This document shows, piece after piece, positions 1-64,000 of a stretch of DNA of 64,000 bases. The notes under the pieces are model-generated. The model saw only the letters and a list, made by a program, of their open reading frames with translations. It searched no databases and had not been told where the DNA came from. How positions within the stretch are numbered: position 1 is the first letter of the stretch; every line of letters starts with the position of its first letter. Origin of the DNA: a virus (Duplodnaviria; Caudoviricetes). A program made the translations under genes and the position numbers. The stretch covers positions 883 to 64,882 of the IMG/VR virus record IMGVR_UViG_3300022752_000002. The stretch is one strand, 5' to 3'.

Positions 1-2425
1 CCTTCAAAACGCCGGCGGCCAGCTTCATTCCTATTGCATCGGAAACCGTATCGATGAATCCGCCAAGTCCGGCATACCTTAGGGCGGCAATATGGGCATC
101 GTGCTCGTCCAGCCGCTGGGGCTCTTCCTTTAGCTTTCCGGCATTGAATTCCGCCAGCTTTGCCTGATATGTCTGCTCCTGATCCTCTCGGGCCTCCGTG
201 TAGAGCCGACCGGCATTTGTGGCCATCCCAACCCCAATACCACCGCTCTTGAGGGCTATGTAGGGCAAGGCCGTCCAAGCATAATCTCCAACACCCTTCA
301 AAAATCCACCCCAAGTCCCTGACTCAAACTGAGGGTCGACAGGCATTGTGGATTTGATCGAGCCTATGTTGCTTTTGGCCGCTTGGGCGGACTCGTCCAT
401 CCAGTCGGCAATGTACTCAACAAATGGCTTAGCCGCTTTGGTTTGGTAGATTTTGTCTAAAATCTTTTGTCCCGCCGCATCAATGGCGATTCTGGCTGTG
501 CTTACGCCAAGATTCCCGTCCATGTTTGGAAGGACCCTCGAGATCCAGCCTGCGGGCCCCATCGCTTGAGATACATCATCCCCGCCAGAAGCCCTTGCCC
601 TAAGGCCGTTGGCTGACATTTGGAAAATTCCCGCCGCAGACTCCTGACTTGCCACAAGGGGAGCTCTCATAAATGAGGCAAGGGAATTCAGGAACCAGCC
701 CTGTTTTTTATTGTCTTTCTTGTAGGAGTTATAGGCCTTTAGGATCTGGTCGGCGTCCCGCTGGTCTCCACCATTGGCAACATACTCCTGCGCAAGCTTG
801 ACCATTCCAGCATCGTCTCCGGTTGATGCAATTTGTCCGGCCTTGGCAGACAGGGATTGGAAGTTGGATTGTTTCTTTAGATACTCATCACGGATAGAGG
901 ACGCGGCCCGCTCGGACTCAGCCTTGGCAAAGTTGTTTGCCTCTTGGGTTATTTCAAAACTTTTTTTTTGTAAATTATCGTTGAGGGCTTTTTCGCCCTC
1001 CTGAACGCTTTTGAATGTCTGGTCGATTGACTCTGATGCCTTTAAGGCGGCCGGCTCAAGAGTTTTGTATTCCTCTCCAAGCCTTTCAATCGCCTTCCGC
1101 CTCCCTTCAAACCTTGAGTTAAATTCCGTTTTTTCCTGCGGGGTCATTTCCGACCATCTGGCCGTTGCATCCTCAAGCTCCTTGTTTGAAATCTCTACAA
1201 GCTGACGGATGGTTTGCTTCCTTGCCGCCGCCGGCAAGATCGTCTTTCTCGCGTCATCATAAGCCTGCTGGGCTTTGACCGACATCTTGGAGAGCTCTGC
1301 CGTTGCGCTTGCCTTTTCCTGATCAATCCTTTGCGAGGCCCTTAGGTCTGCCCCGGCAGTCCTGAAGTAGGCGGCGGTCTGCTGTTGCGGGACATTTGGC
1401 GTTGCCCCTTCAACCATCATGGTTCCGCCACCGGTTGAAATGTCTTTTGCGGCACTTGCCATAAAGGCATCTTCTGGCGTCTCCCTGCCGAGGGTCTTAT
1501 AGGTTTCAGTCAGGCTCCTAACGATGGGGTCGTCCGCCGGTCTGCGTCCTTCTGAAAGAGCCCTTTCCTTTGCCTGCCGGAGAAGATCGATGGCAACGCT
1601 TTGCTTGTGAATTTGCTGAAGGGCAATCTGTTGCCGCCTGATATCGTTTCTTTGCTGTCCAAGCTCCAGCCTTCGCTGGGCTGACTCTTCGGGTGTTAGT
1701 TGTTTGCCGTCAAAAATGACTGGCTCTCCGGTGGTCTTTGAGGATGTCTCAAGGTCTCGAAGGTCATCCTCTTTTAGCTGAAGCTCTTGGGCCTGAGCCG
1801 CCAGCTCCGAGTTAAGCAAATCAAACGGCTTTTTGTTTTGCTCGGCCAGACCCTTTCTGGCGACATCACGAATACCCTGATCTTGGGCATTGGAAAACTG
1901 TTCATACCCGCCGAGATATTTGTATCCCTTGCTGTCGGCTTGTCTTGGGTCTTCGTACTCCTCGTAAATTCCGTCTTTTGAGAATCTTGGATCTAGGGAA
2001 TCGGACTGTTTCGCCACGATTCTGGACATTGGCTTTGAGGTTCTTCCAGTAAGGTTCCCGTACTTGTCAGTGGATACTTTCTCGTCAACAAGCTCTCCAG
2101 TCGGCAATCGACGCTGGGCAGTAAACTCTCCCGGTGTTCTTTCAATTCTCTGTGCTCCCTGCTCATCAAGTGTAATCTTGGGCTGGATTCCCTCGGTTGG
2201 GTCTGTGTATGTGGTTACGCCGGCGGCTTCAAAAACTTCTTTTTTCCCGCCCTCAAAAGCCTTTTGTGTCTGTTTTTCTTCCGAAACAAGATCCCTTTCA
2301 TCTTTTTTTTGCTGACCGAGAAAAGACCTTAGCCCGGATGGAGATCCTCCGGCAACTGGGGTAGGGCCCTCAAAGGCTTCGCCCTTATTGCGTGGGCTTC
2401 CGCCCGTAATTGAATCAAGGCCCAT
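1..2425 (-). CDS. Large internal virion (ejection) protein, partial; runs off the window start; missing from the ORF track
   Basis: ATG at 2425 just after the stop of the 434-aa ORF. Manual translation (MGLDSITGGSPRNKGEAF...SDAIGMKLAAGVLK) is open for about 808 codons. Helical, Ala/Gln/Glu-rich, with Gly/Ala hydrophobic stretches. Confidence 0.7.
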   Translation of the reverse strand, partial: MGLDSITGGSPRNKGEAFEGPTPVAGGSPSGLRSFLGQQKKDERDLVSEEKQTQKAFEGGKKEVFEAAGVTTYTDPTEGIQPKITLDEQGAQRIERTPGEFTAQRRLPTGELVDEKVSTDKYGNLTGRTSKPMSRIVAKQSDSLDPRFSKDGIYEEYEDPRQADSKGYKYLGGYEQFSNAQDQGIRDVARKGLAEQNKKPFDLLNSELAAQAQELQLKEDDLRDLETSSKTTGEPVIFDGKQLTPEESAQRRLELGQQRNDIRRQQIALQQIHKQSVAIDLLRQAKERALSEGRRPADDPIVRSLTETYKTLGRETPEDAFMASAAKDISTGGGTMMVEGATPNVPQQQTAAYFRTAGADLRASQRIDQEKASATAELSKMSVKAQQAYDDARKTILPAAARKQTIRQLVEISNKELEDATARWSEMTPQEKTEFNSRFEGRRKAIERLGEEYKTLEPAALKASESIDQTFKSVQEGEKALNDNLQKKSFEITQEANNFAKAESERAASSIRDEYLKKQSNFQSLSAKAGQIASTGDDAGMVKLAQEYVANGGDQRDADQILKAYNSYKKDNKKQGWFLNSLASFMRAPLVASQESAAGIFQMSANGLRARASGGDDVSQAMGPAGWISRVLPNMDGNLGVSTARIAIDAAGQKILDKIYQTKAAKPFVEYIADWMDESAQAAKSNIGSIKSTMPVDPQFESGTWGGFLKGVGDYAWTALPYIALKSGGIGVGMATNAGRLYTEAREDQEQTYQAKLAEFNAGKLKEEPQRLDEHDAHIAALRYAGLGGFIDTVSDAIGMKLAAGVLK

Positions 2426-27020: not shown

Positions 27021-27191
27021 GGTGTTGCGACAAAATGATAGCCCGTTGTAGATACAAAAACTTGAGACATGGCGTGTACTTGCTGTTACGTGAAGACATA
27101 TTGTCCGACACAACAGAGGTTTCCGCATGTTCCCTTGGGAATAGGGACATCAGTAGTAGTATTAGGAAACCTAATAGTAGACACCCGACCA

Positions 27192-27674: not shown

Positions 27675-27981
27675 ATATTCGAGCACTTAAAATTTATCGC
27701 TTCGCATAGACTAAAATTTCTCAAAAAGGCCTTTCGAAGTTAGACGCTAGGCTTCGCAAAAAGTCCAAGCCGGTTCCGTTCCCCAAGGATTACCAGTGGG
27801 ATTGGATCAGGCATTTCCTCATTCGCGGTCTTCGTAAGACCGATTTTGTCCACTTCAGCGGGAACGACACCCGCCAGATTCTTTGCGCCCTAAATCATTT
27901 TGACAATTTTTTGAATTGTCGCTTTCGGGGGCGTTATCGCTCCGCACCGCTGGAAAACGAATGCAAAAGCGGGAACGGTTT

Positions 27982-44411: not shown

Positions 44412-45467
44412 TCAGAGCTTGGCCATGAGTTCGCGGAATTGGTCCACGTCCTCAATCTTGGACAAGACATCCGAAGCGTTGATGGGTTGGGGTGTGTTGG
44501 TGCGAGCGTTACCGCTTGCGGGTTGGATGGTGGGACTGCGCCGGGCGGTGCTTGACGGGGGCGTCGTAGCAACCGGTTTGGGGGCAGGGGTAGCCTTTGG
44601 GGCCTTCGGATTCCTTGGGGCGATCCCAAGCTCGTTGGCGGCCATTTGGGCCAGCTTAAACGGCATATTGGGGTCGCTGATGATCGGATTCCCGGAGTCC
44701 TGAAGGACATCGAAAATCTCGAACATTTTCTTGGTCAGCGCGGAATCCTTGTTGGCCGTGTCAGGATAGAACTCAACAGCCTTTTGCTTGGCTGAACTGA
44801 GGGTTTCCTGACGGGCGACCTTCTCGGCTTCCTCCCGCTGAATGGCGATCCTTTCGGCCTTGCGAAACTCCTTTTGGAGTCCGGCAATCTCAAGCTCAAG
44901 CTGGGCGGCCTTGTCAAATTCAAGGTTCTTGATGGCATCGGCCTTTTCCTTGGCCTTGGCATCAAGCGTTCCTTCGATTTTGGCAAGATCCGGCACCTCT
45001 TGGGCCTGTTCCGCCTGTTCCTTGCCCTTGGCCATTTCGATGGCCTGCTCAAGGCTGAGGTCGGGGTTGCGGGCCCTGATTTGCAGGGCTTTGCGCTCGA
45101 CCTCCGACCAACTTCCAATCCGTATGCGCTCAGGGAGCGTTTCCGGGTCGGGGGCAGGGGTCTCCTCGGCTTTGGGCTCTTCTTTGGCTTCCTCGTCCTT
45201 TGGCTCCTCTTTTGCCTCTTCAGCCTTTGCCGGTTCTTGGGCTTGCGCCGCTTCTTCCGGCTGTTCGGCGGGGGTTTCTGGTTGCGGATTGTCTTTCGCA
45301 ACCGGTTCCGCCGGTTTGGCTTCGATGGCCTTGGGGTCCAAAGACTGGATAAGCTCGTGGTACGCGCGCTCGTCAAGCGCCGCCACGTCCACAGTCTTGT
45401 TTTGCGTTTCGTTAGAAACGCCCGTCTGAGTAGTGTTCTCGGCTTGCGCCGGAGTATTTTCGCTCAT
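44412..45467 (-). CDS. Capsid scaffolding protein
   Basis: Acidic EP-rich N-terminus, coiled coil, Pro-rich linker; directly upstream of the capsid gene. Confidence 0.75.
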   Translation of the reverse strand: MSENTPAQAENTTQTGVSNETQNKTVDVAALDERAYHELIQSLDPKAIEAKPAEPVAKDNPQPETPAEQPEEAAQAQEPAKAEEAKEEPKDEEAKEEPKAEETPAPDPETLPERIRIGSWSEVERKALQIRARNPDLSLEQAIEMAKGKEQAEQAQEVPDLAKIEGTLDAKAKEKADAIKNLEFDKAAQLELEIAGLQKEFRKAERIAIQREEAEKVARQETLSSAKQKAVEFYPDTANKDSALTKKMFEIFDVLQDSGNPIISDPNMPFKLAQMAANELGIAPRNPKAPKATPAPKPVATTPPSSTARRSPTIQPASGNARTNTPQPINASDVLSKIEDVDQFRELMAKL

Positions 45468-50305: not shown

Positions 50306-50634
50306 TACGGCTCGTCCTTGACATCATCAAGCTCAGGTGAAATATCAAAAGCGAATTGCGTCGTGTATTTTGTGTCCTCAGGTGGATATTGATTCTCAAA
50401 AATTTCCCTGACAGAAATGCTCGTGGCGGTTGAGTCTCTTGATCTGATGTCAGCAATTGTGTCGGCAAGCTTGCTCATCACTCCGTAGGCTATTTTTCTG
50501 ATGTCTCCGGTAGCTGGGTTTGCTTCCGCGTTTGAAATAAGTGGAAAAAGAATTTTTTTGAAGGTAACCCTAGTTTTGCCAGAAACCGTGGAAACTGACA
50601 CGTTTCCAATCCCAAATGCCTGATCCAGCGTCAT
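50305..50634 (-). CDS. Hypothetical virion-region protein
   Basis: Coupled to the portal and the 1039-aa ORF. Confidence 0.55.
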   Translation of the reverse strand: MTLDQAFGIGNVSVSTVSGKTRVTFKKILFPLISNAEANPATGDIRKIAYGVMSKLADTIADIRSRDSTATSISVREIFENQYPPEDTKYTTQFAFDISPELDDVKDEP

Positions 50635-52850
50635 ACGGCTGTTCCTGTTTCCGGGCTTGCGCCTCCGGAGGGTCCTGCATCAAGGGGGACTTGTCTTGCG
50701 TTGCCAACCGACTTTGCCGGAGCTCCGGGCGATCCCGCTTGACCAAACACACGTCCGTCCGGAGTAATTCCGTTAATTGCAGGGGGTGGCTCAAATGGCT
50801 GAATGATGGAATCTGCTTCCATAACTCCGAGGGCCTTGAGGCTTTGCCGATAAAAGAGGGATACCTTCTGCTGAACTTCCGGAGGGAGCCCATAGAACTG
50901 GGCAACCATATTTGCTGCTTGGGCGTTGCTTTGAAGCTGTTGCTCGCCGTGATAGCGGGTTAGAAGGATTTTAACATTAAGGTTGAAATTCTTAACCTCC
51001 TCTGGGGTTACGGAAACAAGGCTCACGGCATCCCCCTCTAAATAAGTAAAGGCTTCGAGCCTGTCCAAGTTGTCGAGCAGGATGGCCATCAGTCGGTTCA
51101 GGATTTGATTTAATCCGCTTTCCAAGCTCAAAAGGTACTGGCTGAACATTTCCGAGCCGGCCTGATCGATTGACCGGATCCCGGTGGCCAGCTTGGAGCT
51201 TGGGAGTCCGGAGAACTCCTGATCGCCGGCATGAACCACCCCGGACTCCAGCTGAACCAGCTGGGTGAAGTAATTCAACATGAAGTTGAGGTCTTGGTTC
51301 TTGGTTTCCGGCAGGGTGACATAAGTGAGGGCATCGGCCGCGTTGAAGCCCGGACGCAATGTATACGTCCCACCTGTGTTTAATATCAGGTTTGGGTTGG
51401 CCGACCCCTCAAAAGTTGCATCAGGGCGCCAGAAGGTGACCCTTCCTGACGCGCTTTGGGCAAAGTTAAGGCGGTTGATGGTGAGATCGATAAAGTCCTG
51501 AGATGTCTTGAACTGCTCAACCCCGCCAAGCCCATACCAGCGTCCGTCAACCGGATTGATCCTGACAACTGTGAACGGCCTCTTGCCGTCCGGGGTCACA
51601 TTGGCGAGGTAGTCGTAGTAGAGGGCCTTTCGGTTGCGGACATCCAGCATGAGCATGATTTCTTCCATCACGCCGTCACCGTTAGCATCGTATCTTAGGT
51701 AGCATTCTGCCACCTCGATAGTCGGGTTTTCTTGGTCATTGGTGACCTCGGCTTCACCACGCTCGCTTCTGGCCTGTTTTGCCGCCGTCTTGGGATTGCT
51801 GCTTTCCCCTGCGGCGAGACGTATCTGCTCGATTGCGGCCTGAATTCTTGCCAGCTCAGCTTCTGGTGTTTCCTCGCTTTTTGATTTGGAGTAAAAGTCA
51901 GCGAGTTCCATCACCGGAGCGTCATAGAGATGCGCACAGAAATCCGCATCGTCCACGCTCACGGAGCTTAGCGGACAGATAAAATCCTGATAGTAGACCG
52001 GTTCAGCTGTGGGCCCTTCGTGCAGGATGATTTTGCGGGTGATTGTCTTCTCTATATAGATCGGGACTACCGGTTGCTGGGTTACGGCGTCCCGCTGGAG
52101 AATCATTGTCACTCCATCCGGTCCGGGGACAAACGAATCAGTATCCGTGATGATGTCGCCATCTTGGGCCAGAATGTCATTTCCGTTGACATCAACCAGA
52201 ACCTTGGCCTTGCGCTGAAAGATCGACTCTTTCCTTTGGTGTGTGGTTTTGACCACGCACTCCCCACGGACGAAGGCCATCTGAAGAATCATGGCCACGG
52301 CCTCTTTCAGCTTGGTTTTGTCAAACTTCCAGCGGGCGTATTTCTCGACCCGCTCGGCAACATTGCGGTCAGCCGGCCCCTGAGGGAAAGTGCTAAACCA
52401 AGGATCGGTTCCTATGAAGTATTTTTGCGCTTTGGCAATCATCTGCCGGACAATTCGGCGGGTGATTGGAACAATCAGGTTGCTGTGCTCAAAAATTCCA
52501 CCCATGACGGTAGGCCGCCACTCAACATTGTTTTCATAGAGCCACTCGTAAACTTGCCGGCGGCCAAGGAAGGATTCGTGCGCGGCCATTGTCCCCGTCT
52601 CGCTGCTCCAAGCAACCCCTCGAATAAGGGATCGGCCCATCTCAGTTTCGGTTTTTCGAAGCCTCTCGCATGCGTATTCGACAAGGATTTTCTCCTGTTC
52701 TTCGGTTAGTTTGTATGGGGATGAAAACCCTGTCTCGGCAGGAACCCCGCCGCCTAAGGCGGTTTCATTTGTTTCCGGCCTTGCGTTTTCTAATGCCTTC
52801 TCAAGCTCTTCTGCCTGATTGACAAGGTTTTCTATTTGAGGAGAAGCCAC
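50631..52850 (-). CDS. Portal protein
   Basis: 739 aa; GECVVK, YDANGDG, PFTVVR, WYGLG, ATGI; podovirus portal pattern. Confidence 0.85.
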   Translation of the reverse strand: MASPQIENLVNQAEELEKALENARPETNETALGGGVPAETGFSSPYKLTEEQEKILVEYACERLRKTETEMGRSLIRGVAWSSETGTMAAHESFLGRRQVYEWLYENNVEWRPTVMGGIFEHSNLIVPITRRIVRQMIAKAQKYFIGTDPWFSTFPQGPADRNVAERVEKYARWKFDKTKLKEAVAMILQMAFVRGECVVKTTHQRKESIFQRKAKVLVDVNGNDILAQDGDIITDTDSFVPGPDGVTMILQRDAVTQQPVVPIYIEKTITRKIILHEGPTAEPVYYQDFICPLSSVSVDDADFCAHLYDAPVMELADFYSKSKSEETPEAELARIQAAIEQIRLAAGESSNPKTAAKQARSERGEAEVTNDQENPTIEVAECYLRYDANGDGVMEEIMLMLDVRNRKALYYDYLANVTPDGKRPFTVVRINPVDGRWYGLGGVEQFKTSQDFIDLTINRLNFAQSASGRVTFWRPDATFEGSANPNLILNTGGTYTLRPGFNAADALTYVTLPETKNQDLNFMLNYFTQLVQLESGVVHAGDQEFSGLPSSKLATGIRSIDQAGSEMFSQYLLSLESGLNQILNRLMAILLDNLDRLEAFTYLEGDAVSLVSVTPEEVKNFNLNVKILLTRYHGEQQLQSNAQAANMVAQFYGLPPEVQQKVSLFYRQSLKALGVMEADSIIQPFEPPPAINGITPDGRVFGQAGSPGAPAKSVGNARQVPLDAGPSGGASPETGTAV

Positions 52851-52861
52851 AGATAAACCTC

Positions 52862-55800
52862 CTACCTGACAAGGGCGGGTTCAACAGACTTTTTCTCATT
52901 TGCGCGTCGCGCATTTCGAACCGCTTGTCTTGCCCGTGAGATTGCGTCCTCTCGGATCGAGTCAACCATCTTGCGGGTTGCTTCTGTAGGGTTTGAGATT
53001 CTTTCTTCGGTAAGTACGTTATCGATACGGCTTCCCGCATACTTGGATGCGAGCGCAAGCATCGTGTTGTACTCCTTGGGGGTCATCTCCTCGTTTGTGG
53101 AAATGCCGTCCTTGTCCTTCATCTGAATAAACCGGCTGGGGGCTCTTGGTTGATAGCGGGTTTGCGGGAACCTTGAGTTAAAGGCAGTTACAAACCTATC
53201 CAAATTGCTCTTTTTGGACTCCATAAAGGCCAAGCCGTCCGGCAGAAGGCCCTTAGTGATACCGCCGGCAAGCCTAGAGGCTCGCTCGTTCATCCCGAGG
53301 AGCTTAAGCCCAGCTTCGGTTCCGGTAACCTCGCGCTCCTTGGGCTTCAGGTCGGCCTTGTATCTTGGCGGTAACGACAAGTCCTCGTTTCCTGTAAGGG
53401 CAGGGAGGCCCGGAAGAAATGAGTTTACCCATCCAGCCATTTCGCCCGGCCCCCATCCTGTCATTCTGTCCGTGTCCCATGACTCGTCCCCGAAGGTAAG
53501 GGCACCCGGCTCAAACAAACGCTTAAAGAAGTTTGGTATCAGCAGGGAGGAGAGCCTTTCGCGCATGACATCGTATCCCTTGTATTTTCCTGTGTCGGTC
53601 GGCGTTCCCCATCCCGATAGCTTTCCAAGATCGCGGACGGCCTTGGCAAATGTTTTTGTGAATGGGTACTTAAAGAACTCCATCACATACGCCCCAACCG
53701 CTTCGCCGCCCGTCTGCCTTCCGCGCATGGCCTGCTTCATGGCCCTTGCGGCATCAATTACATAGGCAAGTCCGCTAACCGGCTCATAGCGGCCGTAGGG
53801 GATAACAAGTCCGCCGCCAAATCCCCGAATAATGACTGATGCCGATGGGTTATTGAATTTTGTGTTAACCCCGCCAGATCCCGTGATAAGGACAGTCTTC
53901 TTGTCGTCGTCATCATCGCCTTCCGCAAGGACAAACAATGCGGCCAGACCGGTAATTCCAAGCAATGCCTCGGAGTGCCTTTGGGACAGGGTATTGTACT
54001 CAAAAGCGTTCATCCTTCCGCCGGCAGATCCTCGCTTTGCCCTCATGGCGACATTGGCCATGGCAAATGGCGAATAGGCCGCAGACGCCCGGGCAATGTT
54101 ATATGGGCTACGAATCAAGATCAGGAAGCTCTGTGCAAATCGGAGGGCAAGCTCGGCAGGGGAGAGCGTCCTTCCAAAGACCCTGATTGAAGAGGTTCTT
54201 GCCACTCTATTTGCGGCCCTGCCAAGTTCCATGTTAATCATCGTCAAGGCCTCCGGAACGAGGCCGGCAAGCTCTCCAAAGGACTGGTAGTCCCTTAGCG
54301 ACTTTGCCATTCCCTTGGCCTTTTGCCACATGGGCTGAGGCGTGAGCAGTTCCTCGTCTCCACGGATTGACAGCCTTTGCGTAAAGGTGTCCCGAAGAGT
54401 CCGGTCAACAGCCAGTCTCCAAGTTAGCGATGTTTTGTCGGCCAGCTCGGATTCGATGTAGTCATTCAGCGCATCACCGGAAAGACCTCTGGCCTTGCCG
54501 AGCCTGTATGCAAATGCCCCCACATAAGCCCTGACGCGCATGGTTTTGTTGTACTCGTCGCCGGCGAGCAGGATGTTGGTTCCTGCTCTCAGGACTTTCC
54601 CGGTTGTGCCCGGAATAGATTTCTCAAGAACGCCGGCCTCCCGCAGGCGGATGTCGGTTGTTTTCACAATACCCTGCTCAACCCCGAACTGAATGGTTTC
54701 GCTTTTGAAGGCTTCTGTTGCCCGGGTCCAAGCCTCTTTGCTAAAGCCAAGCCATCCGAGCTCCCTAAATGCGCGCAAGGCTTCGGTTGCCCCGCCCTGA
54801 ATAGCCTCTCCAAGCGTCTTGTAGGGTGTGCCAATATCTACCTCTCGTGGCACAAGGCGTGTGCCGGCGGGGTTGCCTTCTTCGTCAAATTGCGGAACTT
54901 TCTCGAAGGCTGTTTCGGTCATGGTGACCCCACGAACCCCGCCCCGATAGTAGTTGGTTAGTGCCTCGACAAATAGGTGTATAGGAACAGATAGTTTTGC
55001 AAACGGAATGGTTGAAATGTTTGCGACCAAGGACGGGCCGCCGGAGAAAATGTTTGAAGAGAACAAGTCCGATGCAATCTTGCCCCAAGATGCCGGTCCA
55101 TTGATGCCTTCCGAGATAAGGCTGTTGATCTTACCGGCCGCAACCGGGTCGTCGTAGCCAAACAGGGGATCGCTTTCAGCGTTTTCTAGGTTGTCCGTGT
55201 TGAGCCCAAAAGCGTCGTACAGGAGCTGGCGGGCCTCTTCTTCGCTAAATCCGTCCTTGTCGGGGTCATCAGGCATCTTGGCGAGCAATCCTTGGCCCTC
55301 TGAGTGCTTTTTGATGGCCTGCATAAGCTGTTTTCTGGTCATCTTGCCGGCGCGGACTTGCTCAAGAACTCGCTGGAACCGGCGGTCAGCCTCAGGCCTT
55401 AGGCCCTTTAGGATGGCCAGCTTAATTTTGTTTCTGGCGTTCTTCAGGCCGGTTTGGGCCTCAATATCTTTAACAGAATAGCCCAAAAGGTATAATTGAA
55501 CCGCATCTCGCAATTGGGTGTCTTTGATGGATTCCAGCATTTGGCCGGCTGTTTGGCCGGTGCGCAGTTTCTTCTGCATGTTCTCTTGCTCGATCCCGGC
55601 AAGGCTTTTGCCAGCCTTCTGAAGGGACTGGTCGGCCTTCTTGGCCTGTCTTTCAAGGATGGACTTCTCGGCCGCACGGACCCCGCCGTCTGCAATATCT
55701 GCCTGCATCTGGGCAATTGCCGCTTCCTGCTGGGCAATATAATCAGCCCACTCTTTTGGAAGATTTGTTCCGTAAGCCGCCCGAGCTCTTGTCTTTTGTT

Positions 55801-58800
55801 GGGCTAAACCATCTTCAGCAACTGCTAGGCTGGCCGAAATTTCAGCAACCTTGTTTCTTGCCTCTGCCTCAAGGTCGCGCCTGTCAATGGCGGTTATTGG
55901 AGCTAAAACTGCCTTTCTAGCTGTATCTTCTGGGTTGAACGGCTTTCTGCCCTGCAAGGATCTGCCAGCCGCCGTTCCCGATTTGTCGTACTGCCTTTGG
56001 AGGTAAAGAAACTCGTTGATTTGCCTGTCATCGCCAGATTGAAATGCTTCGTAAGCGAGCTGGTTAAGCTCACGTTGGGCCGCATAATCCTCGTCCTTGG
56101 TGAGAGTTTCGTCCTCGTCCAAGTTGGCCAGCCTGTTAAAGATTCGCTCTTTTGAGATTCCGGAGGCTTTTGAGGCCGCCTCTATGTCGGTAAATGGCTC
56201 CGGGCGAGGGGAGGCCTCTTGGGATGCCCGGATGACTGCGCTGGCCTCGGGGGTATTGCCGTAGTCAACAAGGCCACGCCTTTCTCCAACAGACTCGTCA
56301 CGAAGCGCAGCCTGAATCTCTTCATTTGTAATCCAGTCTCCGTCGAGAGCCTGCTGAAGCTCGTCATCTGTCATCATGTCCGGCATTCTTGAGAACAGGG
56401 CCTGACCGGATGTAGAGATGTCCTTTGCCATCTCTGGGGTGATATCGATTCTGTATATGGAGCTTCTTTTTGTCGGGGGTTTTACAACAAGCCTTCCGCC
56501 CAAAAGCGATGCCCTGAATTCTTTCGCCCCGGGCCAACTGGAATCAAGGTCTCCTCGGGAGTTTACCCTCTCCCGAAATCTGCCATCTGCATTATACCTT
56601 AATAGGTTTTCAGAAATGAGGGTAGCCGTACTCGCCACACCATTCAGCTCAATATCATCCTCTGCCATTGGCGTATTTTGATCGAGCGGAAATTCGACAG
56701 GGTTAGACCGGTTTTTTTCTCTGCGTATAAACCCGGCAATCTTGTTAATTGCGCTTATCTGTTGCTCTTTAAGCTCTTGAAATTCGAATCCACTATTGGA
56801 CAGCGGCCATTCTCCTGTTCTATCAAGTTCATTTAGCCACTCGCGCAATGATTTTGCGAATACCACAGCTTCTTGATTCCGCTTTATGTCAAAAGGCCTT
56901 CCGATAAGTCCATAATTGTCAAAGGAGTATTCAATCCTTTCTATCATTGGATAGAGCTTATTAATTCCAGTATTTTTTCGATTATTTTTTAGAAGGGCTG
57001 CATACATTTGAGAGGCAATCCCTTCCCTTGCATCCGCCACGATATTTGGGAGGGTCGTTGATAAGTTTGTGCTAAAATTTTCGTCAAACCCAATATCAAG
57101 CATTGTTGCCTTAATTACATTGCTATCATCAGTGCCAATTGCTTGTACCAACCTGTTCCTGTCCTCAATGATTTTTAGGCCGGCGGACACGGCAAGTCTG
57201 GCCTCTTGCTTGGTCAGCCCATCAAGGGCTGCATCTATGCTTGTCTTGAGGATGACGGACTCAATTACGTCAGGGATGGGGCCCTCATATTGCTCGACTG
57301 GCCCAGTGCTTACATCGTCCTTCTTGATTTTACCTCCCCATTTGGAGACGTATTTTGATATCTGCTGGTAAATGGTTTTGTCGTAAAGATTTCTGAGTTT
57401 TTGCGAGCCGAACTCAAGGTTTTCACCCTGAAGGTCAAGAATTCTGCTTTGCGCAATTTTATGCTCTTGCTCGTCTGTGGGGGAAAATGCGGATTCCTCT
57501 ACCCCAACTTCTGCAGCCCGTCGCATTAAATCGTCGTATGGCTCAATAAAATTAAAGTCAGCCCCAGCAAGCGGAGTGATCGCCATAGCCTTTTCGGCAA
57601 TTGGTTTTCCAACTAATCCGGAAAGTTTTTTGCCATCAACAATGTCTTTCTTGATAATGCGTCCGTCCTTGTATGCCGCTATTGCGTAAAGAATCTCTTC
57701 TTTTGGTGCGGTTGATTCGTTATTAGGCCTCGTGCCCCCGAAAGGAGTATCCCTTTTGTTGTCTTGCTGAATCTCGTCAAGAAGAGTTCCGGTCTCGTTG
57801 TCTGATACGGCAGGAAACCTATCTACCCTTGAGTGGGCAATGTAGCTTTTCCCCTCAAAGTGCTGGCCGGACTCCTCGGATCGGCTGTATGTCGGGTCTA
57901 TCTGTCTCCCGGTCTTAAACGGAAGGATCCTGATTCTATCAACCAGTTCTGTTCTGTTGTATCTTTCAATCTGCGAGTCGCCAGTTGAAAATCCAATCCA
58001 TTTGTCGCCACGCTCAATGCTTTTTGCAAGCTCGAGCTTAAACATTTGCAGATAAGGCGATCCTCCCTGAGGCTTTGTGGATTCGATATAGTCCAAAGCC
58101 CTCTCAAAGTCAGACCCTTCGCTTATTGTTCCGGTGAGGTATCTTGGAAGCGTTTCAAGAGGAACCTTGGTTTTGCTGATAACCGCATATTTTCCTGTGT
58201 AGTTTTTCTGAAACTGCTCTTTTAGTTGTTCACTTGAAAATATTGGCGCGATCCCCAGCCCTGACGGGGCCTGAGATGCCCTAATTGACTCTCGCCCGCC
58301 GATTTCACCAAGGCTTGTTTCAACAAGATCCGTATATCCCTCGGTCAGCTTCTTCCAAGCCTCCTCGCTCATGATGGCCGATCTTCGCGGGTTGCCTTGT
58401 TCTCCAGATATAAAAAGCATTGCATTGCTGGCTGGCTTGACTTCCGCAATCACATAATTGCCATTACCAAGAATTTCCGCTTTCTTTTGTTCTGAAACCC
58501 TGCTCCAAAGCTCCGGAGGCCTTCTATCAATAATCCTTGAGCTTGGATCTGCGAACCGCAGAACCCTCTCTGCGTAATCTTGACCGCGCTTGTTGCTTGG
58601 GGCATCGCGAGTTTCGCGAGTGAGCATTCCTCGTGTACCGTATGCTGAATATTTTGCGTTTGGCCCGGTTAATGTTTCTACAAAGAACAAATTGCCCAAC
58701 GCATTCTTAACCTTTTGGATAAGCAAATCCTTGTCTACTCGTCTGTTTTCAGGATTTGGGCCTGATTCAGTAGTTGCCTCTTCCACGAGGCCCTCAAAAT

Positions 58801-61800
58801 CGACCCACCTAAGCTCTTCGGCGCGAACTCCCGGGGTTTTTGTGGCTATATCCATCACCTGACCGATGGTTGCCTTTGATGGCATCTTGGTCTCGATGGC
58901 ATCTATAAGCCTTGAGTAGAACTTCGCGAAGGCCTTTCCGCTATGCCCAATCGCTCCTCCAATATAAACAGGGATGTCTGGAGTCCTTGCATCCAAGCTT
59001 AGTCCGCCAAAGTCAAATTCGTCCTGAACGGCCTTGGCGGCCTCGGCTCTTCCGGCTGTTGCCCTGCGAAGTAGGTTTGGAATGTCAAATAAGCGAAGTT
59101 GAACCGGTATTGGCCAGTTAAACTTAATGGCCATGGACTCGATCCTTTCAAACATATCAAGGTCTTTTGGCTCAAATTCGCCTGATTTAATCTTGTCTCT
59201 CAGCTCGGAGTATTTGGCAAAAAGACGAGCAGGGGGGAGGTCTGGGACGCGGGCCTCAAGGGAAAACCCAGAAGATTGATCGACGGCTTTGCGAAATTCA
59301 TATCTCTGTTCTGCGGCCGTTTGGAGCATCCGATTGCGTGAAAATAGGCTGTTATATTCTTCCAGCCTTTTGCTTTCTTCGGCTGTAAGTGGATTCTTTA
59401 ATTCAAGCCGTTTCTTTGATGAATAAATTGAATCAATAGCCGAAAGCGCCTTTTTATAGGCCTGTTTAAAACGTATTCTTGCAATATTGTCCGGCCTATA
59501 ATATTCATCGATGCCAAGCGCATTTGCTATTTCCCGAAAGCTCATTCCGTCAATTCGCATCTGAATAACTGAAAGTTCATTCTCGTTGAGGAACTGAGTT
59601 ATTGCCCCTAACTCATCCGTCTGGAAGAAGTCTGGAACTCGAGCTTCAAGGCCAAGCTCGAGCTGTCCGGTTGCCTGTATGGTCGTTTCTCGAATGTCCT
59701 TTTCGTTTTGAACTCGCTCTCTGGCGATTGTTTCAATTGTCTGTCCACCCATGTCGCTCGACAAAAAGCGGTTGTAATCCGCAAGCTTTTCCATGTCTTC
59801 GTCTACGCCGGGATAGACTCTTCTTTGGCTTAATTTTTCTGCAAGTTGGTTCCTTACTGCGTAGATTTGGTCAACCGCGAAAAGCATCCTTGAAACTGCC
59901 TCACTATATCTTGTCCTAATGATGTTATCTCTTCGGTCAACCTGATCGTCCTCAATTCCGTACTCATCCGCAATATCCTCAAAAGACATTCCCTGCGCTC
60001 TTTTTTGGAGCAGATCCATCATTGCTGAATTGATGAAGCGGCTCAGAACGCTCGATACTGGCTGATTTTCGGCAAGCAGGGTTTCCTGAAGATTGGCGGC
60101 CTCTTCAGCTCTTTCATCAAGCTCGTTACCGGTGGCCGGATTGACAAATTTACGCTCAACAATTCCCTCCGTGTCTTCCTCATCCCGAATCTCTGTTGGC
60201 CGCATTGCTCTTGCTTCGGCTGAGGTGACCACAAGAGAGCGGCCTTGGTCGTCGTAGTTTCCGACCAGCTTTCGGATGTGGTTTTCAATAGCCCGCATCA
60301 GGAAGTTGTTGAGCCTGATTTCCTCCCTAGCTCCGGATATGTGCCTCTGCTCAAACCCCAGCTTTTTATCCGCCTCAGTCATTGCGTTTGTGACATCTTC
60401 CAGCGATGGATTCTTGTTTCCGCCGGCCAAAAGATTGCGGATGATGCGCTGGACAAATGCCTTTCTTGCCTCGGCAAAAAGGTTTATGTCCTGCTGAGTG
60501 GCCCCAAGCCTTGTGTTAAGGAAGTCCTTGGATATCTGCTTGCCTGTCTCTGATTTGGAAAGAACATCGATGATCTTGTCATACGCAATTTCTCGGAACT
60601 GCTCTTCCCCATATCCTCTTGCAAAGAAACGATCCACAGGGGTCATGCCTGACGAACTAGCCTTATTAATCAGGTAGGTGATTATCTTGCCGCCGGGCCT
60701 GATCCTTCGGTTGCCTTCTTCGTTGATTGGGTCGTAGGTGGTTTCTTCTTCACCGGTTTCAGCATTTGCAACCCTTGTAATCCTTGCTCTTGAGATGCCC
60801 TCCATTGGGGCGATCTCTTGGGCGATAAGGTAAGCGTTCTTTATGGATTCTTCGGTTGCGCCCGTCTCCGGGCCGTCGTCGCTTTCTGGCTCTTCAGAGG
60901 ATTCAAACAAGTCCACGTCGGGCGTTCTGGCTCGAAGTGAAAGGGCTCGACGGCCCGGGAACATGAAGTCTGGAACCCTTGCCATAAGTTCGGATATCGT
61001 CTGGCTTTGCCCCGGGAAAATGGGGGCAGGGGGCTTGGATCCTTCTGGGTAAATTGCGCCGGCCTTGTCGAGGGCAAGGCGGATAAGATTCAGGTTTGTC
61101 TTTGGCTCAAATCGAGTTTCCATGCCCGGTAGCATTGTCTCTCCGCGCTCTCGGAAGATGCTGGCCACAAACTCGGAGTAGTTAGCCAAGAAGGCGGCTA
61201 CTCTTTCTGGGGATCCCTTGATGCCGTGGGCATTGTCAATCGTGGCAAGTTGGCCGGCGACCCCAGTAACCGAGGAAAGCCTTCCCTCGCGGACAACAGG
61301 GATCAGGACCATTGCCTGCATGGGGCTGATAGAACCAAAAATCTTTGACTGGCTTACATAGTCCTCATAGTTGGCGAGGCTAACCATGGCGCGAGCTCTG
61401 TCGTTGCCACTCTTGCTGGCGGCGGCGTCCCGCTCTGCCCGATAAGCCAAATAATCAGCAATTGAATTCTGAATGGCAGTAAGCGGATTGGCCATGCGGG
61501 CCTCTTCGCCAAGCTCGTTTTCATACTTCTTGAAATCTCTTTTGACGTTAAAGAGGGAAACCGATGCCTTCTCGAGCCCTTGACGGAAGGTTTCAAGCCC
61601 GTTGTTCCGGGCAATGGTCGGGGATACGAGCATGTTGATTGTGTCAAACGTCTGCTTGTTGAGGAGCATTTCACCATTTTCATTTTCAGGAGCGAAAACG
61701 AATGCAAGGATTGCCCTGCGGATTCGGCCTTCAAAAGCCGGCTGATACACCCCGTTCTCGTAAAGGTTTCTGTCCGAGCTAAAGATTTTAAGCCATTTTT

Positions 61801-64000
61801 CTAGGATTTCGTCGTTTTGGCCGGCAGGGGAGCCGTCTTGGTTGAGAAGACTCGGCACTCCGTTGACCAGCACTTCCTTGGGAAGGCTAAGGCTTGGGTC
61901 GTCCCGGATCTCAAGGGCATCGGCAAGCGCAATTTCTGCATTGTTTTCGTTGCCCGTTCCGAGGTTTGCATCTCTGGCAATACGCCGAAGTTGCTGTTTC
62001 TCGGTTCCGAGAGACGGATTCTTTGTGTTGTTCCAGTCAATTTTCCTTACGAGAACAGGCTTTTGTCCGGAGGCTATGATTTCATCCACTTTGCCGGCCA
62101 GATCAGGGTACTTGACCTTCAGGCGGTTTGCGTAGTCGGCAACCCTCTCGTCGGATGCCATTTCATACCCGCCCTTGCGCCCGTGGCCGGCGACAATATC
62201 AAAACCCTGCTGACTGACCGCATAGGGGTTGTCCTTGGCCTCAATGACAGTAATCGGCCCGGTATCCAGCTCGGTTGTGTCTGTCGAGGCGGCTCCGTCT
62301 TTATCCCAGTCCCTTCCAATCTCTGCAATTTTGGAGGCATAAGCGGAATCACCTTGACGGCTTCGCAGCTGAAGCTCTGTCCCAGCCATGTCGTTAAGGC
62401 TGTTTAGCGGGACAACCTCAAGGTCATAACGTGTCACGCCATACTCGGTCTTCCTTGTGTTGGTTGACTTCAAGCCTTTGGTTTGTGCGGCTTGAGCGGA
62501 TGGGGCAGGGGATGGGGCAATAAGCCTTTGTCTGGCATCTTCCGGAGACATCCTTGAGATTTCCTCCGGTGAAAGTCCCGCATCCCGAAGCCTGCGGGTG
62601 GTGGCATTATCTAGCGTTGGCTGGACTTCCTGCCGGCCGCCCGGTTCCTTCATTTCCAAAACGTCATTGATTGACTGGATTAACCCATCAAGCTCGTCGG
62701 CAACTTCGGGAGATGCATCACGAAGGCCCCTGCGAATACCCTGAATCGCCCTTAAAACAGAGCGAAGATAGTCCTTGATAGTCTGCATCACGCTCGCCAG
62801 AACGCCACCGCCCTTTTGTGCGTTGATAACCTCAACAGAGGATTCTGTTAGTCTGCTCTTCTGGCCAAGCTGTCGAACAAGCTCTCCCATCAGCGTAAAA
62901 TCGCTGATCCTGTTTTCCTCGGCCCACTGCATGAATTCCTCTGCCGTGTACCCACCCTCCTTCATGGGCGGACCCTTGTCCCCCATATAGACGGAGGCCG
63001 AGCTCATTAGGCCCTCAAGAATCCGCCCGTCCTGCTTGGATGCCTCGAAGATGCTTCGGTAGAGCCGAGACCTTTCCTCGTTGTAAAACTGGAGGTAGTC
63101 GGTTCTGCCGGCTTCCTTTGCTTTGAGCGCGCCGGCGACAAAGTCGGCCATGTGGCGGAATTCCTCATTGACGGCCCGGTTTGTGTACTCGGGGGACTTG
63201 CCATCGAGGGCAACAAACATTCTTGGGTTAATCGTCAGGGAGATGTCGCCATCCTGATTGAAGCTGGCCCGAAATGCCGTTTTGGCATTTGAATCCTCCT
63301 TCAGGCCAATACCAATTCCGTAGATTGACCTAACCTCTCCGGCGAACCTTTGAAACCTATTTCTTGCGCTTAAGTATCTTTCTTTTGGGTTTTTGCCTTC
63401 AAGGCGGCGCATGTATGGGTTGGCAACTCCAGCCACCCTTGCTCTCTGTTGTTCATTTGTGGAGAGCAGGGCAAGCGGCTCTTCACCAACCAAGTCCTGC
63501 TGTTCTGCCGGCCTGACTGCGCCAATAGAATAGTTTTTTGCCCCTTCGCTCTTCAGCCTTTGGATGGCCTGCATGCGGGCTCGGTCTTCATTTTCGGCCT
63601 CAATCGTGAACGTTCCCCCTGCCTTGCCCTTCTTATATTCAACCGCCCAAGTTGTGGTTGTTTTTGGAGCCCGCTCCGCTGGTGTTTGGGCTTCCGGAGA
63701 AGCCATTTGCGATCTGGCCAACTCCTCTTTTTGAGCGCGAATTTCGTCAGCTGGGGCAACCTCATCAAGCTTCGGCGGCTCCTGACCAAGTTGGGCTGGG
63801 GCATTTTCATCAAGAAGGTTCTGATTGCTTGCAACGATAGACTCAAGGTTCTTGGCCTTTCCTCCCAAGAATCTCATAAACGCCGGCGATACAATTGTCT
63901 TTCCGTCCTCTGTTTGCTGAAAGAGCTTCGTCCCTCCGACTTTCCCCTTGGTCTCAACATCGGTGAGGGGAGCCCCAATTGAGAATTTGGCCACGGCTAA
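52862..64000 (-). CDS. Giant polyvalent internal virion protein (>3712 aa; frame open at the window end)
   Basis: Reads TTA GCC GTG upstream of the called start, so it is 5'-truncated. Contains EEFRH zincin-like, ParB-like GHGR and sigma70 region 4-like HTH segments plus a helical C-terminal virion domain. Confidence 0.85.
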   Translation of the reverse strand, partial: LAVAKFSIGAPLTDVETKGKVGGTKLFQQTEDGKTIVSPAFMRFLGGKAKNLESIVASNQNLLDENAPAQLGQEPPKLDEVAPADEIRAQKEELARSQMASPEAQTPAERAPKTTTTWAVEYKKGKAGGTFTIEAENEDRARMQAIQRLKSEGAKNYSIGAVRPAEQQDLVGEEPLALLSTNEQQRARVAGVANPYMRRLEGKNPKERYLSARNRFQRFAGEVRSIYGIGIGLKEDSNAKTAFRASFNQDGDISLTINPRMFVALDGKSPEYTNRAVNEEFRHMADFVAGALKAKEAGRTDYLQFYNEERSRLYRSIFEASKQDGRILEGLMSSASVYMGDKGPPMKEGGYTAEEFMQWAEENRISDFTLMGELVRQLGQKSRLTESSVEVINAQKGGGVLASVMQTIKDYLRSVLRAIQGIRRGLRDASPEVADELDGLIQSINDVLEMKEPGGRQEVQPTLDNATTRRLRDAGLSPEEISRMSPEDARQRLIAPSPAPSAQAAQTKGLKSTNTRKTEYGVTRYDLEVVPLNSLNDMAGTELQLRSRQGDSAYASKIAEIGRDWDKDGAASTDTTELDTGPITVIEAKDNPYAVSQQGFDIVAGHGRKGGYEMASDERVADYANRLKVKYPDLAGKVDEIIASGQKPVLVRKIDWNNTKNPSLGTEKQQLRRIARDANLGTGNENNAEIALADALEIRDDPSLSLPKEVLVNGVPSLLNQDGSPAGQNDEILEKWLKIFSSDRNLYENGVYQPAFEGRIRRAILAFVFAPENENGEMLLNKQTFDTINMLVSPTIARNNGLETFRQGLEKASVSLFNVKRDFKKYENELGEEARMANPLTAIQNSIADYLAYRAERDAAASKSGNDRARAMVSLANYEDYVSQSKIFGSISPMQAMVLIPVVREGRLSSVTGVAGQLATIDNAHGIKGSPERVAAFLANYSEFVASIFRERGETMLPGMETRFEPKTNLNLIRLALDKAGAIYPEGSKPPAPIFPGQSQTISELMARVPDFMFPGRRALSLRARTPDVDLFESSEEPESDDGPETGATEESIKNAYLIAQEIAPMEGISRARITRVANAETGEEETTYDPINEEGNRRIRPGGKIITYLINKASSSGMTPVDRFFARGYGEEQFREIAYDKIIDVLSKSETGKQISKDFLNTRLGATQQDINLFAEARKAFVQRIIRNLLAGGNKNPSLEDVTNAMTEADKKLGFEQRHISGAREEIRLNNFLMRAIENHIRKLVGNYDDQGRSLVVTSAEARAMRPTEIRDEEDTEGIVERKFVNPATGNELDERAEEAANLQETLLAENQPVSSVLSRFINSAMMDLLQKRAQGMSFEDIADEYGIEDDQVDRRDNIIRTRYSEAVSRMLFAVDQIYAVRNQLAEKLSQRRVYPGVDEDMEKLADYNRFLSSDMGGQTIETIARERVQNEKDIRETTIQATGQLELGLEARVPDFFQTDELGAITQFLNENELSVIQMRIDGMSFREIANALGIDEYYRPDNIARIRFKQAYKKALSAIDSIYSSKKRLELKNPLTAEESKRLEEYNSLFSRNRMLQTAAEQRYEFRKAVDQSSGFSLEARVPDLPPARLFAKYSELRDKIKSGEFEPKDLDMFERIESMAIKFNWPIPVQLRLFDIPNLLRRATAGRAEAAKAVQDEFDFGGLSLDARTPDIPVYIGGAIGHSGKAFAKFYSRLIDAIETKMPSKATIGQVMDIATKTPGVRAEELRWVDFEGLVEEATTESGPNPENRRVDKDLLIQKVKNALGNLFFVETLTGPNAKYSAYGTRGMLTRETRDAPSNKRGQDYAERVLRFADPSSRIIDRRPPELWSRVSEQKKAEILGNGNYVIAEVKPASNAMLFISGEQGNPRRSAIMSEEAWKKLTEGYTDLVETSLGEIGGRESIRASQAPSGLGIAPIFSSEQLKEQFQKNYTGKYAVISKTKVPLETLPRYLTGTISEGSDFERALDYIESTKPQGGSPYLQMFKLELAKSIERGDKWIGFSTGDSQIERYNRTELVDRIRILPFKTGRQIDPTYSRSEESGQHFEGKSYIAHSRVDRFPAVSDNETGTLLDEIQQDNKRDTPFGGTRPNNESTAPKEEILYAIAAYKDGRIIKKDIVDGKKLSGLVGKPIAEKAMAITPLAGADFNFIEPYDDLMRRAAEVGVEESAFSPTDEQEHKIAQSRILDLQGENLEFGSQKLRNLYDKTIYQQISKYVSKWGGKIKKDDVSTGPVEQYEGPIPDVIESVILKTSIDAALDGLTKQEARLAVSAGLKIIEDRNRLVQAIGTDDSNVIKATMLDIGFDENFSTNLSTTLPNIVADAREGIASQMYAALLKNNRKNTGINKLYPMIERIEYSFDNYGLIGRPFDIKRNQEAVVFAKSLREWLNELDRTGEWPLSNSGFEFQELKEQQISAINKIAGFIRREKNRSNPVEFPLDQNTPMAEDDIELNGVASTATLISENLLRYNADGRFRERVNSRGDLDSSWPGAKEFRASLLGGRLVVKPPTKRSSIYRIDITPEMAKDISTSGQALFSRMPDMMTDDELQQALDGDWITNEEIQAALRDESVGERRGLVDYGNTPEASAVIRASQEASPRPEPFTDIEAASKASGISKERIFNRLANLDEDETLTKDEDYAAQRELNQLAYEAFQSGDDRQINEFLYLQRQYDKSGTAAGRSLQGRKPFNPEDTARKAVLAPITAIDRRDLEAEARNKVAEISASLAVAEDGLAQQKTRARAAYGTNLPKEWADYIAQQEAAIAQMQADIADGGVRAAEKSILERQAKKADQSLQKAGKSLAGIEQENMQKKLRTGQTAGQMLESIKDTQLRDAVQLYLLGYSVKDIEAQTGLKNARNKIKLAILKGLRPEADRRFQRVLEQVRAGKMTRKQLMQAIKKHSEGQGLLAKMPDDPDKDGFSEEEARQLLYDAFGLNTDNLENAESDPLFGYDDPVAAGKINSLISEGINGPASWGKIASDLFSSNIFSGGPSLVANISTIPFAKLSVPIHLFVEALTNYYRGGVRGVTMTETAFEKVPQFDEEGNPAGTRLVPREVDIGTPYKTLGEAIQGGATEALRAFRELGWLGFSKEAWTRATEAFKSETIQFGVEQGIVKTTDIRLREAGVLEKSIPGTTGKVLRAGTNILLAGDEYNKTMRVRAYVGAFAYRLGKARGLSGDALNDYIESELADKTSLTWRLAVDRTLRDTFTQRLSIRGDEELLTPQPMWQKAKGMAKSLRDYQSFGELAGLVPEALTMINMELGRAANRVARTSSIRVFGRTLSPAELALRFAQSFLILIRSPYNIARASAAYSPFAMANVAMRAKRGSAGGRMNAFEYNTLSQRHSEALLGITGLAALFVLAEGDDDDDKKTVLITGSGGVNTKFNNPSASVIIRGFGGGLVIPYGRYEPVSGLAYVIDAARAMKQAMRGRQTGGEAVGAYVMEFFKYPFTKTFAKAVRDLGKLSGWGTPTDTGKYKGYDVMRERLSSLLIPNFFKRLFEPGALTFGDESWDTDRMTGWGPGEMAGWVNSFLPGLPALTGNEDLSLPPRYKADLKPKEREVTGTEAGLKLLGMNERASRLAGGITKGLLPDGLAFMESKKSNLDRFVTAFNSRFPQTRYQPRAPSRFIQMKDKDGISTNEEMTPKEYNTMLALASKYAGSRIDNVLTEERISNPTEATRKMVDSIREDAISRARQAVRNARRANEKKSVEPALVR

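Follow-up and report, generated by a model that had tools for sequence, protein, structure and literature searches.

Sigma-4/LuxR-type helix-turn-helix modules in a giant, polyvalent-like protein of an uncultured freshwater phage

The 64,000-nucleotide (nt) window analyzed here, bases 883 to 64882 of a 64,882-bp viral record (IMG/VR IMGVR_UViG_3300022752_000002), encodes part of a 4772-amino-acid (aa) phage protein that, judged from its sequence and by analogy, fits the polyvalent proteins of phages. This giant protein carries three helix-turn-helix (HTH) modules, which by profile and model comparison belong to the sigma region 4/LuxR helical HTH superfamily, with no specific assignment to sigma factors. 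The reading we prefer, held at about even confidence, is that they are DNA-binding modules of a polyvalent protein that would be injected with the phage genome, and not a sigma factor. The original prediction for this DNA had proposed an injected sigma-like factor that steers host RNA polymerase to an array of promoter motifs. Its conserved HTHs of sigma-4/LuxR type proved real and do lie in a polyvalent-like giant protein, but sigma region 2 was not found, and the sigma reading was not supported.

Three HTH modules in one reading frame

All six peptides on which the original prediction was built were found where it had placed them, in one minus-strand reading frame of a single open reading frame (ORF). 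In this frame, HTH1 contains MDLLQKRAQGMSFEDIADEYGI (59954-60019) and IRTRYSEAVSRM (59885-59920), HTH2 contains LNENELSVIQMRIDGMSFREIANALGI (59510-59590) and ARIRFKQAYKKAL (59444-59482), and HTH3 contains LYLLGYSVKDIEAQTGL (55445-55495). Residues are numbered below by P0001, the stored part of the giant protein, in which residue x corresponds to whole-protein residue x + 1060. The HTH1 core (P0001 1323-1385; 59846..60034, minus strand) is a helical module of sigma-4/LuxR type and represents a divergent extra copy. HTH2 sits in a mini-cassette with a linker motif on each side (P0001 1458-1587; 59240..59629, minus strand; HTH core 59411-59596), and the HTH3 module (P0001 2811-2908; 55277..55570, minus strand) is a distant paralogue of HTH1 and HTH2 that is kept in all relatives.

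The second HTH copy claimed originally is a true paralogue of the first: HTH1 and HTH2 are a diverged duplication, with 39% identity over ~80 aa and a shared architecture in which the HTH is followed by a long helix. A hidden Markov model (HMM) built from 7 modules found exactly two copies in the giant protein (E values of 4e-30 and 7e-32) and one copy each in 4/4 homologues tested. HTH2 is the copy closer to the relatives, being 45-54% identical to the single HTH of the related proteins P0003-P0005 and 23-25% identical to the copy in P0007/P0008. HTH1 reaches at most 34-39% identity with any single copy of P0003-P0005, and the whole-protein alignment handles the HTH1 unit as an insertion. The weaker third HTH was also confirmed as a distant relative, aligning to the HTH1 region with an hhalign probability of 71.8% (E 3.5e-5). 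The HTH-plus-tail unit is duplicated in this phage, and a third, distant copy lies in a later cassette. Because the modules are kept in relatives down to 32-33% identity, their presence is more than chance; the conserved positions are G-M/L-S/T-F/Y-x-x-I-A and an R/K-rich third helix.

Assigning the modules to a type was more difficult. Curated Pfam and NCBIfam cut-offs were applied, and all family matches of the HTH modules fall below them. For example, Sigma70_r4_2 scored 19.5 bits against a cut-off of 25.7, Sigma70_r4 scored 16.6 against 24.1, and GerE scored 14.2-15.3 against 23.5 (E 0.015). HTH_23, HTH_Tnp_ISL3, DUF433, Terminase_5, and GerE all score on a par with the sigma region 4 models, and HTH3 weakly matches Terminase_5, a terminase-associated HTH family (E 0.0033). 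In a six-frame scan, the r4_2 model also matched 14 of 14 control genomes, 4 archaeal ones included, and is therefore not specific to sigma factors.

Profile-profile comparison was made against an alignment of extracytoplasmic function (ECF) sigmas, consisting of E. coli RpoE and six phage ECF-like sigmas drawn from 88 matching phage records, with crAss-like phages, Streptomyces phage Gilgamesh, and Rhizobium phage AF3 among the sources. Using hhalign, HTH1, HTH2, and HTH3 aligned to positions 135-181 (region 4.2) with probabilities of 70.7%, 78%, and 18%, respectively (E about 2-4e-5 pairwise for HTH1 and HTH2). The proposed match to sigma70 region 4 thus held at the level of these alignments, but not at that of Pfam, where scores stayed below the cut-offs and generic HTH families did equally well. 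The region-4-like helix pattern is common to LuxR-type domains and hence not diagnostic of sigma factors. Two other HTH proteins of the phage, a Hin-type invertase and a DnaA_C-type protein, did not align to the modules, although as single-sequence comparators they offer less power.

The AlphaFold2 (AF2) model of the HTH1 cassette has a pLDDT of 66.4 overall and ~80 over the HTH. Residues 272-344 of this model superpose on the DNA-binding domain of the LuxR-type regulator EsrB (7vim_A), the best structural match of the HTH (Z 6.0, rmsd 2.5, 64/64 residues), at a level (Z ~6 for helical models) within the range that the search tool, VIA, calls common. The nearest sequences in the PDB were NarL/FixJ-type response regulators, which were not significant (E 0.98 and 0.56). 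A PDB sequence search with a 501-aa region gave a best E of 0.39, a PDB search with the cassette profile gave a best E of 0.051 (plectin), and Foldseek with the whole 411-aa model gave a best E of 0.22. Taken as a whole, the cassette model is most similar in structure to generic helical proteins (SepL, Z 8.1; CorA; spectrin repeats). In both the alignments and the model (loop 302-310), the loop leading from the second helix into the recognition helix exceeds that of sigma region 4 by 3-7 residues, which is unusual for a working HTH.

The modules share features with two known families without reaching the cut-offs of either. As in region 4 of ECF (group 4) sigmas, the region 4.2 helix pattern and key residues align, and a helical domain and a flexible linker precede the HTH. 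Unlike ECF sigmas, the modules have a longer turn and scores below the cut-offs, with no region 2 detected, and in contrast to stand-alone ECF sigmas of 170-200 aa, the unit is embedded in a giant protein and duplicated as an independent unit. The model suggests a four-helix fold like that of LuxR/GerE (NarL/FixJ-type) domains, such as EsrB (7vim). LuxR/GerE proteins differ in that no receiver or ligand domain is found here, the scores are sub-threshold, and a long coiled tail follows the HTH.

The same data bear on the explanation that the modules are only HTH-shaped, serving as protein-protein contacts or structural helical spacers that bind no nucleic acid. The lengthened turn, the uniformly sub-threshold profile matches, and the resemblance of the whole-cassette model to generic helical proteins all agree with such a role. 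We consider it quite improbable, however, given that the positions typical of sigma-4/LuxR domains and the R/K-rich third helix are conserved, that hhalign probabilities to region 4 reach 71-78%, and that the model superposes on a full-length LuxR DNA-binding domain.

A giant protein built from cassettes

The giant ORF is a single minus-strand frame of 4772 codons, counted from the first ATG, that wraps the junction of a circular assembly. The two ends of the record share a 127-nt repeat that looks like a circular-assembly overlap, not a physical genome end, so that the gene is split into two pieces in the linear record; repeats of this length are typical of circular assemblies built with k = 127. 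Subtracting the repeat leaves a 64,755-bp circle. The C-terminal part (3712 codons, residues 1061-4772) occupies 52862..64000 on the minus strand, with its 5' end open at the window end and running on across the junction, and the N-terminal part (808 codons) occupies 2..2425 on the minus strand, with the ATG at 2425. Residues 809-1060 are encoded in the 882 bases of the record that precede the window. The protein accounts for ~22% of the 64.8-kb genome, and most of its sequence has no match to any Pfam family. Its only strongly hydrophobic 19-residue window, a possible membrane-inserting segment, falls within whole-protein residues 882-904, encoded before the window.

As the original prediction had it, the HTH segments are embedded in a giant protein, and the gene for this 4772-aa product lies among head genes. 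The order on the minus strand is large terminase (TerL, 3735-5471), an unnamed 434-aa ORF, the giant gene, portal (50631-52850), five unnamed ORFs, and major head protein (42857-44386). A tape-measure identity for the giant protein was rejected, as a tail-tube context was not seen. The earlier statement that no stand-alone sigma factor or RNA polymerase was recognized in the window also stands, with none among the 55 ORFs scanned with PHROGs or the 45 scanned with Pfam. A simple regular-expression search of the giant protein and three relatives found no RNA polymerase catalytic motifs, which is a weak test.

This gene neighborhood raises an explanation in which the HTHs handle DNA inside the capsid, binding the phage's own genome in the head or at the portal to organize it, anchor it, or pace its ejection, with no role in transcription. 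The gene adjoins the portal gene in the head module, three HTH copies are strung along one very long chain, HTH3 has its weak match to Terminase_5 (E 0.0033), and the N- and C-terminal regions, including the hydrophobic segment at 882-904, are conserved. Neither Pfam nor PHROGs detected a MuF or other known head-anchoring domain in the giant protein, however, and a conserved recognition helix is unneeded for sequence-independent DNA binding. On this balance, a purely capsid-internal function appears unlikely.

The giant protein is constructed from about nine exchangeable cassettes on a recurring, disordered linker, L-x-A/S-R/K-x-P-D/E. Seven copies of the linker occur on the minus strand: copy 1, ARVPD (60968..60982); copy 2, ARTPD (60917..60931); copy 3, ARVPD (59630..59644); copy 4, ARVPD (59240..59254); copy 5, ARTPD (58976..58990); copy 6, SRMPD (56378..56392); and copy 7, AKMPD (55268..55282). 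Shuffling predicts 0.69 copies of the core, [AS][RK]xP[DE], in the giant protein. L-x precedes all seven copies, compared to an expectation of 0.06, and none of 2000 shuffles had more than 2. The linker that closes the modelled cassette (residues 398-411) has a pLDDT near 31 (<50). Outside the giant protein, the phage encodes 13,598 aa, in which the core is found once, as IRARNPD at residue 132 of a 351-aa ORF (44412-45467, minus strand) just upstream of the major head protein gene; the product of this ORF could be a scaffold or a protease substrate.

Relatives of the protein are few. A word-indexed search returned four related proteins, and a full HMMER scan of 1.84 billion representatives with the cassette returned six matches, of which 4 were true relatives; P0009 and P0010 were dropped as repeat or low-complexity artefacts. 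All real relatives are giant proteins or fragments of them, and no stand-alone form of the cassette was seen in the full HMMER scan. Against 50,697 phage records, megablast gave no match and tblastn gave no relatives, with 3 records at E values of 6-8 only. Scans of viral contigs with the cassette alone and with P0007 found nothing. The phage itself is present in freshwater and lake metagenomes: of 16 runs listed, 14 from 7 studies contain it, all of them DNA runs and none RNA. In 4 of these, at least half of the sampled words were found, and one of the 4 is possibly the source sample.

Comparison of the relatives ties the linker to changes in protein length. Linkers occur at corresponding places in the relatives (with looser L-x-A-K variants in P0007 and P0008), and each large length difference begins or stops at one. 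For example, a ~700-aa cassette lies between linker copies 1 and 2 in P0003, P0004, P0005, and P0007 and is missing both here, where only 17 residues separate the two copies, and in P0008. It contains a GHKL-type ATPase (HATPase_c_3, above the cut-off at E 1e-11 to 2.7e-14) and a HEITH stretch noticed by eye. The relatives with the HEITH stretch have no Pfam peptidase match, and the giant protein of this phage contains no HExxH cassette. Conversely, an 861-aa cassette between linker copies 5 and 6 (56393..58975, minus strand) is found only here and is absent from P0003, P0004, and P0005; a language-model atlas search with it gave no usable match. A further cassette of ~180 aa is found only in P0005.

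One low-depth contig from run X4 (depth 5.1) joins position 56394 to 59075, skipping the 861-aa cassette as P0003 does. With a shorter side of only 46 nt at the joint and a likeness floor of 85, this contig is probably derived from a related phage present in that sample. A second X4 contig differs at 29/347 letters over the HTH1 tail and diverges beyond 60007. The linker marks the boundaries of cassette gain, loss, and duplication, where it may serve either in recombination or as a site of protease cleavage.

Polyvalent proteins of phages and conjugative elements, such as P1 DdrB and the N4 virion RNA polymerase, were described by Iyer, Burroughs, Anand, de Souza, and Aravind in 2017 (PMC5512222), who propose packaging, injection, and proteolytic release of domains. 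The giant protein shares with the class, as far as the passages of that article used here describe it, a very large multidomain build, a place among late/virion genes, extensive domain shuffling, and a predicted delivery with DNA. Its relatives bear an HExxH peptidase-like stretch and enzymatic cassettes, as polyvalent proteins do. A further candidate for a shared element is a putative DdrB-like ParB domain (P0001 526-654; 62039..62425, minus strand), which matches positions 9-120 of 121 in PF18763 at E 6.1e-4, with a sub-threshold 20.4 bits against a cut-off of 27.6; the domain is also matched in P0004 (E 0.002) and P0005 (E 0.0056).

There are also differences. The recurring L-x-A-R-x-P-D linker and the sigma-4/LuxR HTH modules set the protein apart from the polyvalent proteins described in those passages, where "sigma" occurs 0 times and the only HTH is the winged HTH of Sno-type ATPases. 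The zincin-like metallopeptidase domain of the class, as it is presented there, was not found in this phage's protein. Because it combines a ParB-like domain, a head-gene cluster, and a cassette design, the protein fits the class as outlined in those parts of PMC5512222. Polyvalent proteins are a known class; new here are the presence and duplication of the HTH modules, the linker that recurs between cassettes, and the polymorphism of the cassettes.

Domain X and the search for sigma region 2

HTH1 lies in a cassette between two linker motifs (P0001 1024-1457; 59630..60931, minus strand) that reads, in order, acidic stretch, domain X, disordered linker, HTH1, and helical tail. Domain X (P0001 1098-1258; 60227..60709, minus strand) is a conserved, all-helical domain of 160 aa, and when modelled alone from six sequences, it gave a confident AF2 prediction (pLDDT 81.8, pTM 0.74). 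Its last long helix holds FLMRAIENHIRK (60269-60304), in the minus-strand frame of the giant ORF. The acidic stretch leading from domain X to HTH1 (cassette residues 203-248; 60119..60256, minus strand) was modelled with low confidence (pLDDT <50) and is probably disordered.

A sigma factor requires region 2, and FLMRAIENHIRK had been put forward as a region 2-like segment. This part of the original prediction was not confirmed. Sigma70_r2 (PF04542) yielded 0 candidates at E values up to 10 in a six-frame scan of the genome, a scan in which 11 of 14 control genomes do match, and it found nothing in the giant protein, in a 211-aa segment alone, or in 6/6 family members. Comparison of domain X with the ECF alignment by hhalign gave a probability of 2%, with the wrong region aligned. 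No fold match rose above noise. The top PDB match of domain X in Foldseek was sigma-28 (1sc5_A) at a nonsignificant E of 0.87, and the best match in the BFVD viral library had an E of 1.5. A wide structural search with VIA returned a best Z of 5.3, to small Myb/GARP and winged-helix DNA-binding domains aligned on residues 71-140, with no sigma chains among its 50 rows. Closer structural comparison with sigma chains gave Z scores of 2.5-4.0, on differing sub-domains. Profile and structure comparison with ECF sigmas, which had been suggested as a check, recovered a region 4 pattern in the modules but no region 2. Domain X models well, yet neither profile nor fold comparison gave a match to sigma region 2 above noise, and its model weakly resembles Myb-type and winged-helix domains.

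An injected sigma-like factor could still be built from these parts if domain X were a highly diverged region 2, responsible for clamp-helix binding and DNA melting, and HTH1 were region 4, so that the released cassette redirects host polymerase to early promoters. The colinear order of helical domain, flexible acidic linker, and region-4-like HTH agrees with this explanation, as does the fact that no sigma factor or RNA polymerase of the phage's own was found among the ORFs scanned. The TIGR02937 profile (sigma70-ECF) matches cassette residues 174-311 colinearly with profile positions 42-153 of 165 (E 0.011), in 2 of 6 members, although its 15.3 bits are one third of the cut-off of 42.9. In the language-model atlas, the cassette is nearest to unnamed small proteins and a few viral clusters bearing Sigma70_r2, with a score of 0.93. 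The 30 nearest clusters include 3 + 1 + 1 small, mostly viral ones with Sigma70_r2 (42-47% of members) or Sigma70_r4_2 (57%), but the 136-139 shared features are fewer than the 170 usual for genuine members of a family, and recognition also falls short of the tool's mark. The top Foldseek match to sigma-28 points in the same direction without being significant. By eye, the invariant R-x3-N in RLNNFLMRAIEN is reminiscent of the ECF region 2.4 signature. Complex prediction for domain X with E. coli beta-prime residues 220-334 scored 0.10 against a mark of 0.32, which is not evidence either way.

Set against these similarities are the missing Sigma70_r2 profile, both genome-wide and in all six members, the hhalign probability of 2%, and the low, inconsistent Z scores with sigma chains. 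In addition, a linker motif, which is a possible cleavage site, parts domain X and HTH1 from HTH2, the copy that is closer to the single HTH of the relatives. This placement of the linker indicates that the HTH unit behaves as an independent module. We therefore assign the sigma explanation a low probability.

The gene-junction motif and a possible role for the modules

The proposed target of the sigma-like factor was a motif array in another part of the genome. Between 12027 and 26134, 20 copies of AAACA-N7-TAATT-N5-start codon lie at gene junctions on the minus strand. Elsewhere in the window, AAACA-N7-TAATT occurs once, and a reversed-pattern control occurs once per strand. The start codon (ATG or GTG) stands exactly 5 nt past the motif at 20/20 sites, and the downstream frame has at least 40 codons at 19/20. 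At 14/20 sites, the stop codon of an upstream open frame (50 codons or more) falls within the motif or the 5-nt spacer and often uses the motif's own TAA or its final T. Motif-bearing genes have no Shine-Dalgarno sequence, whereas late genes have AGGAGG-like ones. A complete related phage (G001) has 19 copies, all on one strand, and a more distant relative (G003), represented by no more than the edge of the matching region, has one exact and one near copy with the same geometry.

The last gene bearing the junction motif encodes a Hin-type DNA invertase/serine recombinase (11431-12021, minus strand; phrog_125, E 2e-51). Within the block, the products of two adjacent genes at 16790-19191 (minus strand) resemble an amidoligase (PF12224, E 1.5e-11) and, at a sub-threshold 22.9 bits (cut-off, 27), a glutamine amidotransferase.

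The claim that the array consists of sigma-type promoters was not supported by this analysis. Sigma factors recognize -35 and -10 elements ~16-17 bp apart upstream of the transcription start. Halves that are 7 nt apart and held at a fixed 5-nt distance from the start codon at every site do not fit such recognition, and the overlap with upstream stops at 14/20 sites also argues against promoters of this kind. This geometry is a further point against an injected sigma factor. One result goes the other way: sigma-70-type promoter matches in the early block, at 11000-28000, are fewer than chance (3 versus 10.8 expected in shuffles; standard deviation, 3.1). Terminator-like sites in the same interval are at chance level (25 versus 24.2). 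The simplest reading of the sequence is that the motif is a gene-junction translation signal, and promoters for leaderless mRNAs are possible. Co-occurrence of domain and motif, another suggested check, was seen in every related record holding the region, but it is uninformative within this lineage because everything else in it co-occurs too.

We return to the preferred reading, in which injected HTH modules of a polyvalent protein bind DNA without being a sigma factor. The giant protein would be made late with the head genes and, by analogy with polyvalent proteins, would probably be packed into the capsid and enter the cell with the DNA. Its cassettes would then work independently of one another, perhaps once the exposed linkers have been cut; since this phage is without the HEITH cassette, a different protease would be needed. 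The HTH cassettes would bind double-stranded DNA early in infection, either that of the host or that of the entering phage, perhaps at the early-gene motif, and the modules are most likely ordinary DNA-binding heads that serve as regulators or anchors. We infer each of these steps, from packaging and injection to cleavage at linkers, DNA binding, and its target.

Several results weigh against this reading. All family matches of the HTH modules are sub-threshold, as is the ParB match that helps place the protein in the polyvalent class. The superposition on EsrB has a Z score common for helical models, and the lengthened loop is unusual for a working HTH. The colinear TIGR02937 match and the atlas neighbors bearing Sigma70_r2 lean toward a sigma factor. 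With the cassette containing HEITH, a putative metallopeptidase, absent from this phage, self-processing would depend on another protease.

A more elaborate scheme would join the modules to the motif. A two-headed DNA reader, formed by a Myb-like three-helix sub-domain of domain X and the sigma-4-type HTH and released at the linkers, might recognize AAACA-N7-TAATT before ~20 early genes of this phage and its relatives. Brought in by the virion, the reader would serve as an activator or a minimal sigma-like protein that turns on leaderless early transcripts ahead of any phage gene expression. We regard this scheme as very unlikely.

By bringing proteins into the cell, a phage can act ahead of the expression of its own genes. 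Known injected players in transcription are the whole RNA polymerase of N4 and the T4 Alt enzyme, which modifies host polymerase. If the HTH cassette affects early transcription, the logic would be the same, that of a capsid-borne protein acting before phage expression, but unlike N4 virion RNA polymerase and Alt, the giant protein has no polymerase or ADP-ribosyltransferase domain that could be found. A virion-delivered sigma factor is not reported in the literature searched, including the parts of PMC6669764 consulted, which is not proof that none is in print. Should the idea be true, a DNA-binding or sigma-like module carried in the capsid would add a third, cheaper route to those of N4 and T4.

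The 17-nt element found 5 nt before 20 start codons poses a separate and tractable question about early expression in an uncultured freshwater phage group. Even without a sigma role, the giant protein clearly illustrates the construction of polyvalent proteins, with cassettes gained, lost, and duplicated at linkers between near-identical phages. This polymorphism at the linkers suggests, in a form that can be tested, how such proteins might be divided into functional pieces.

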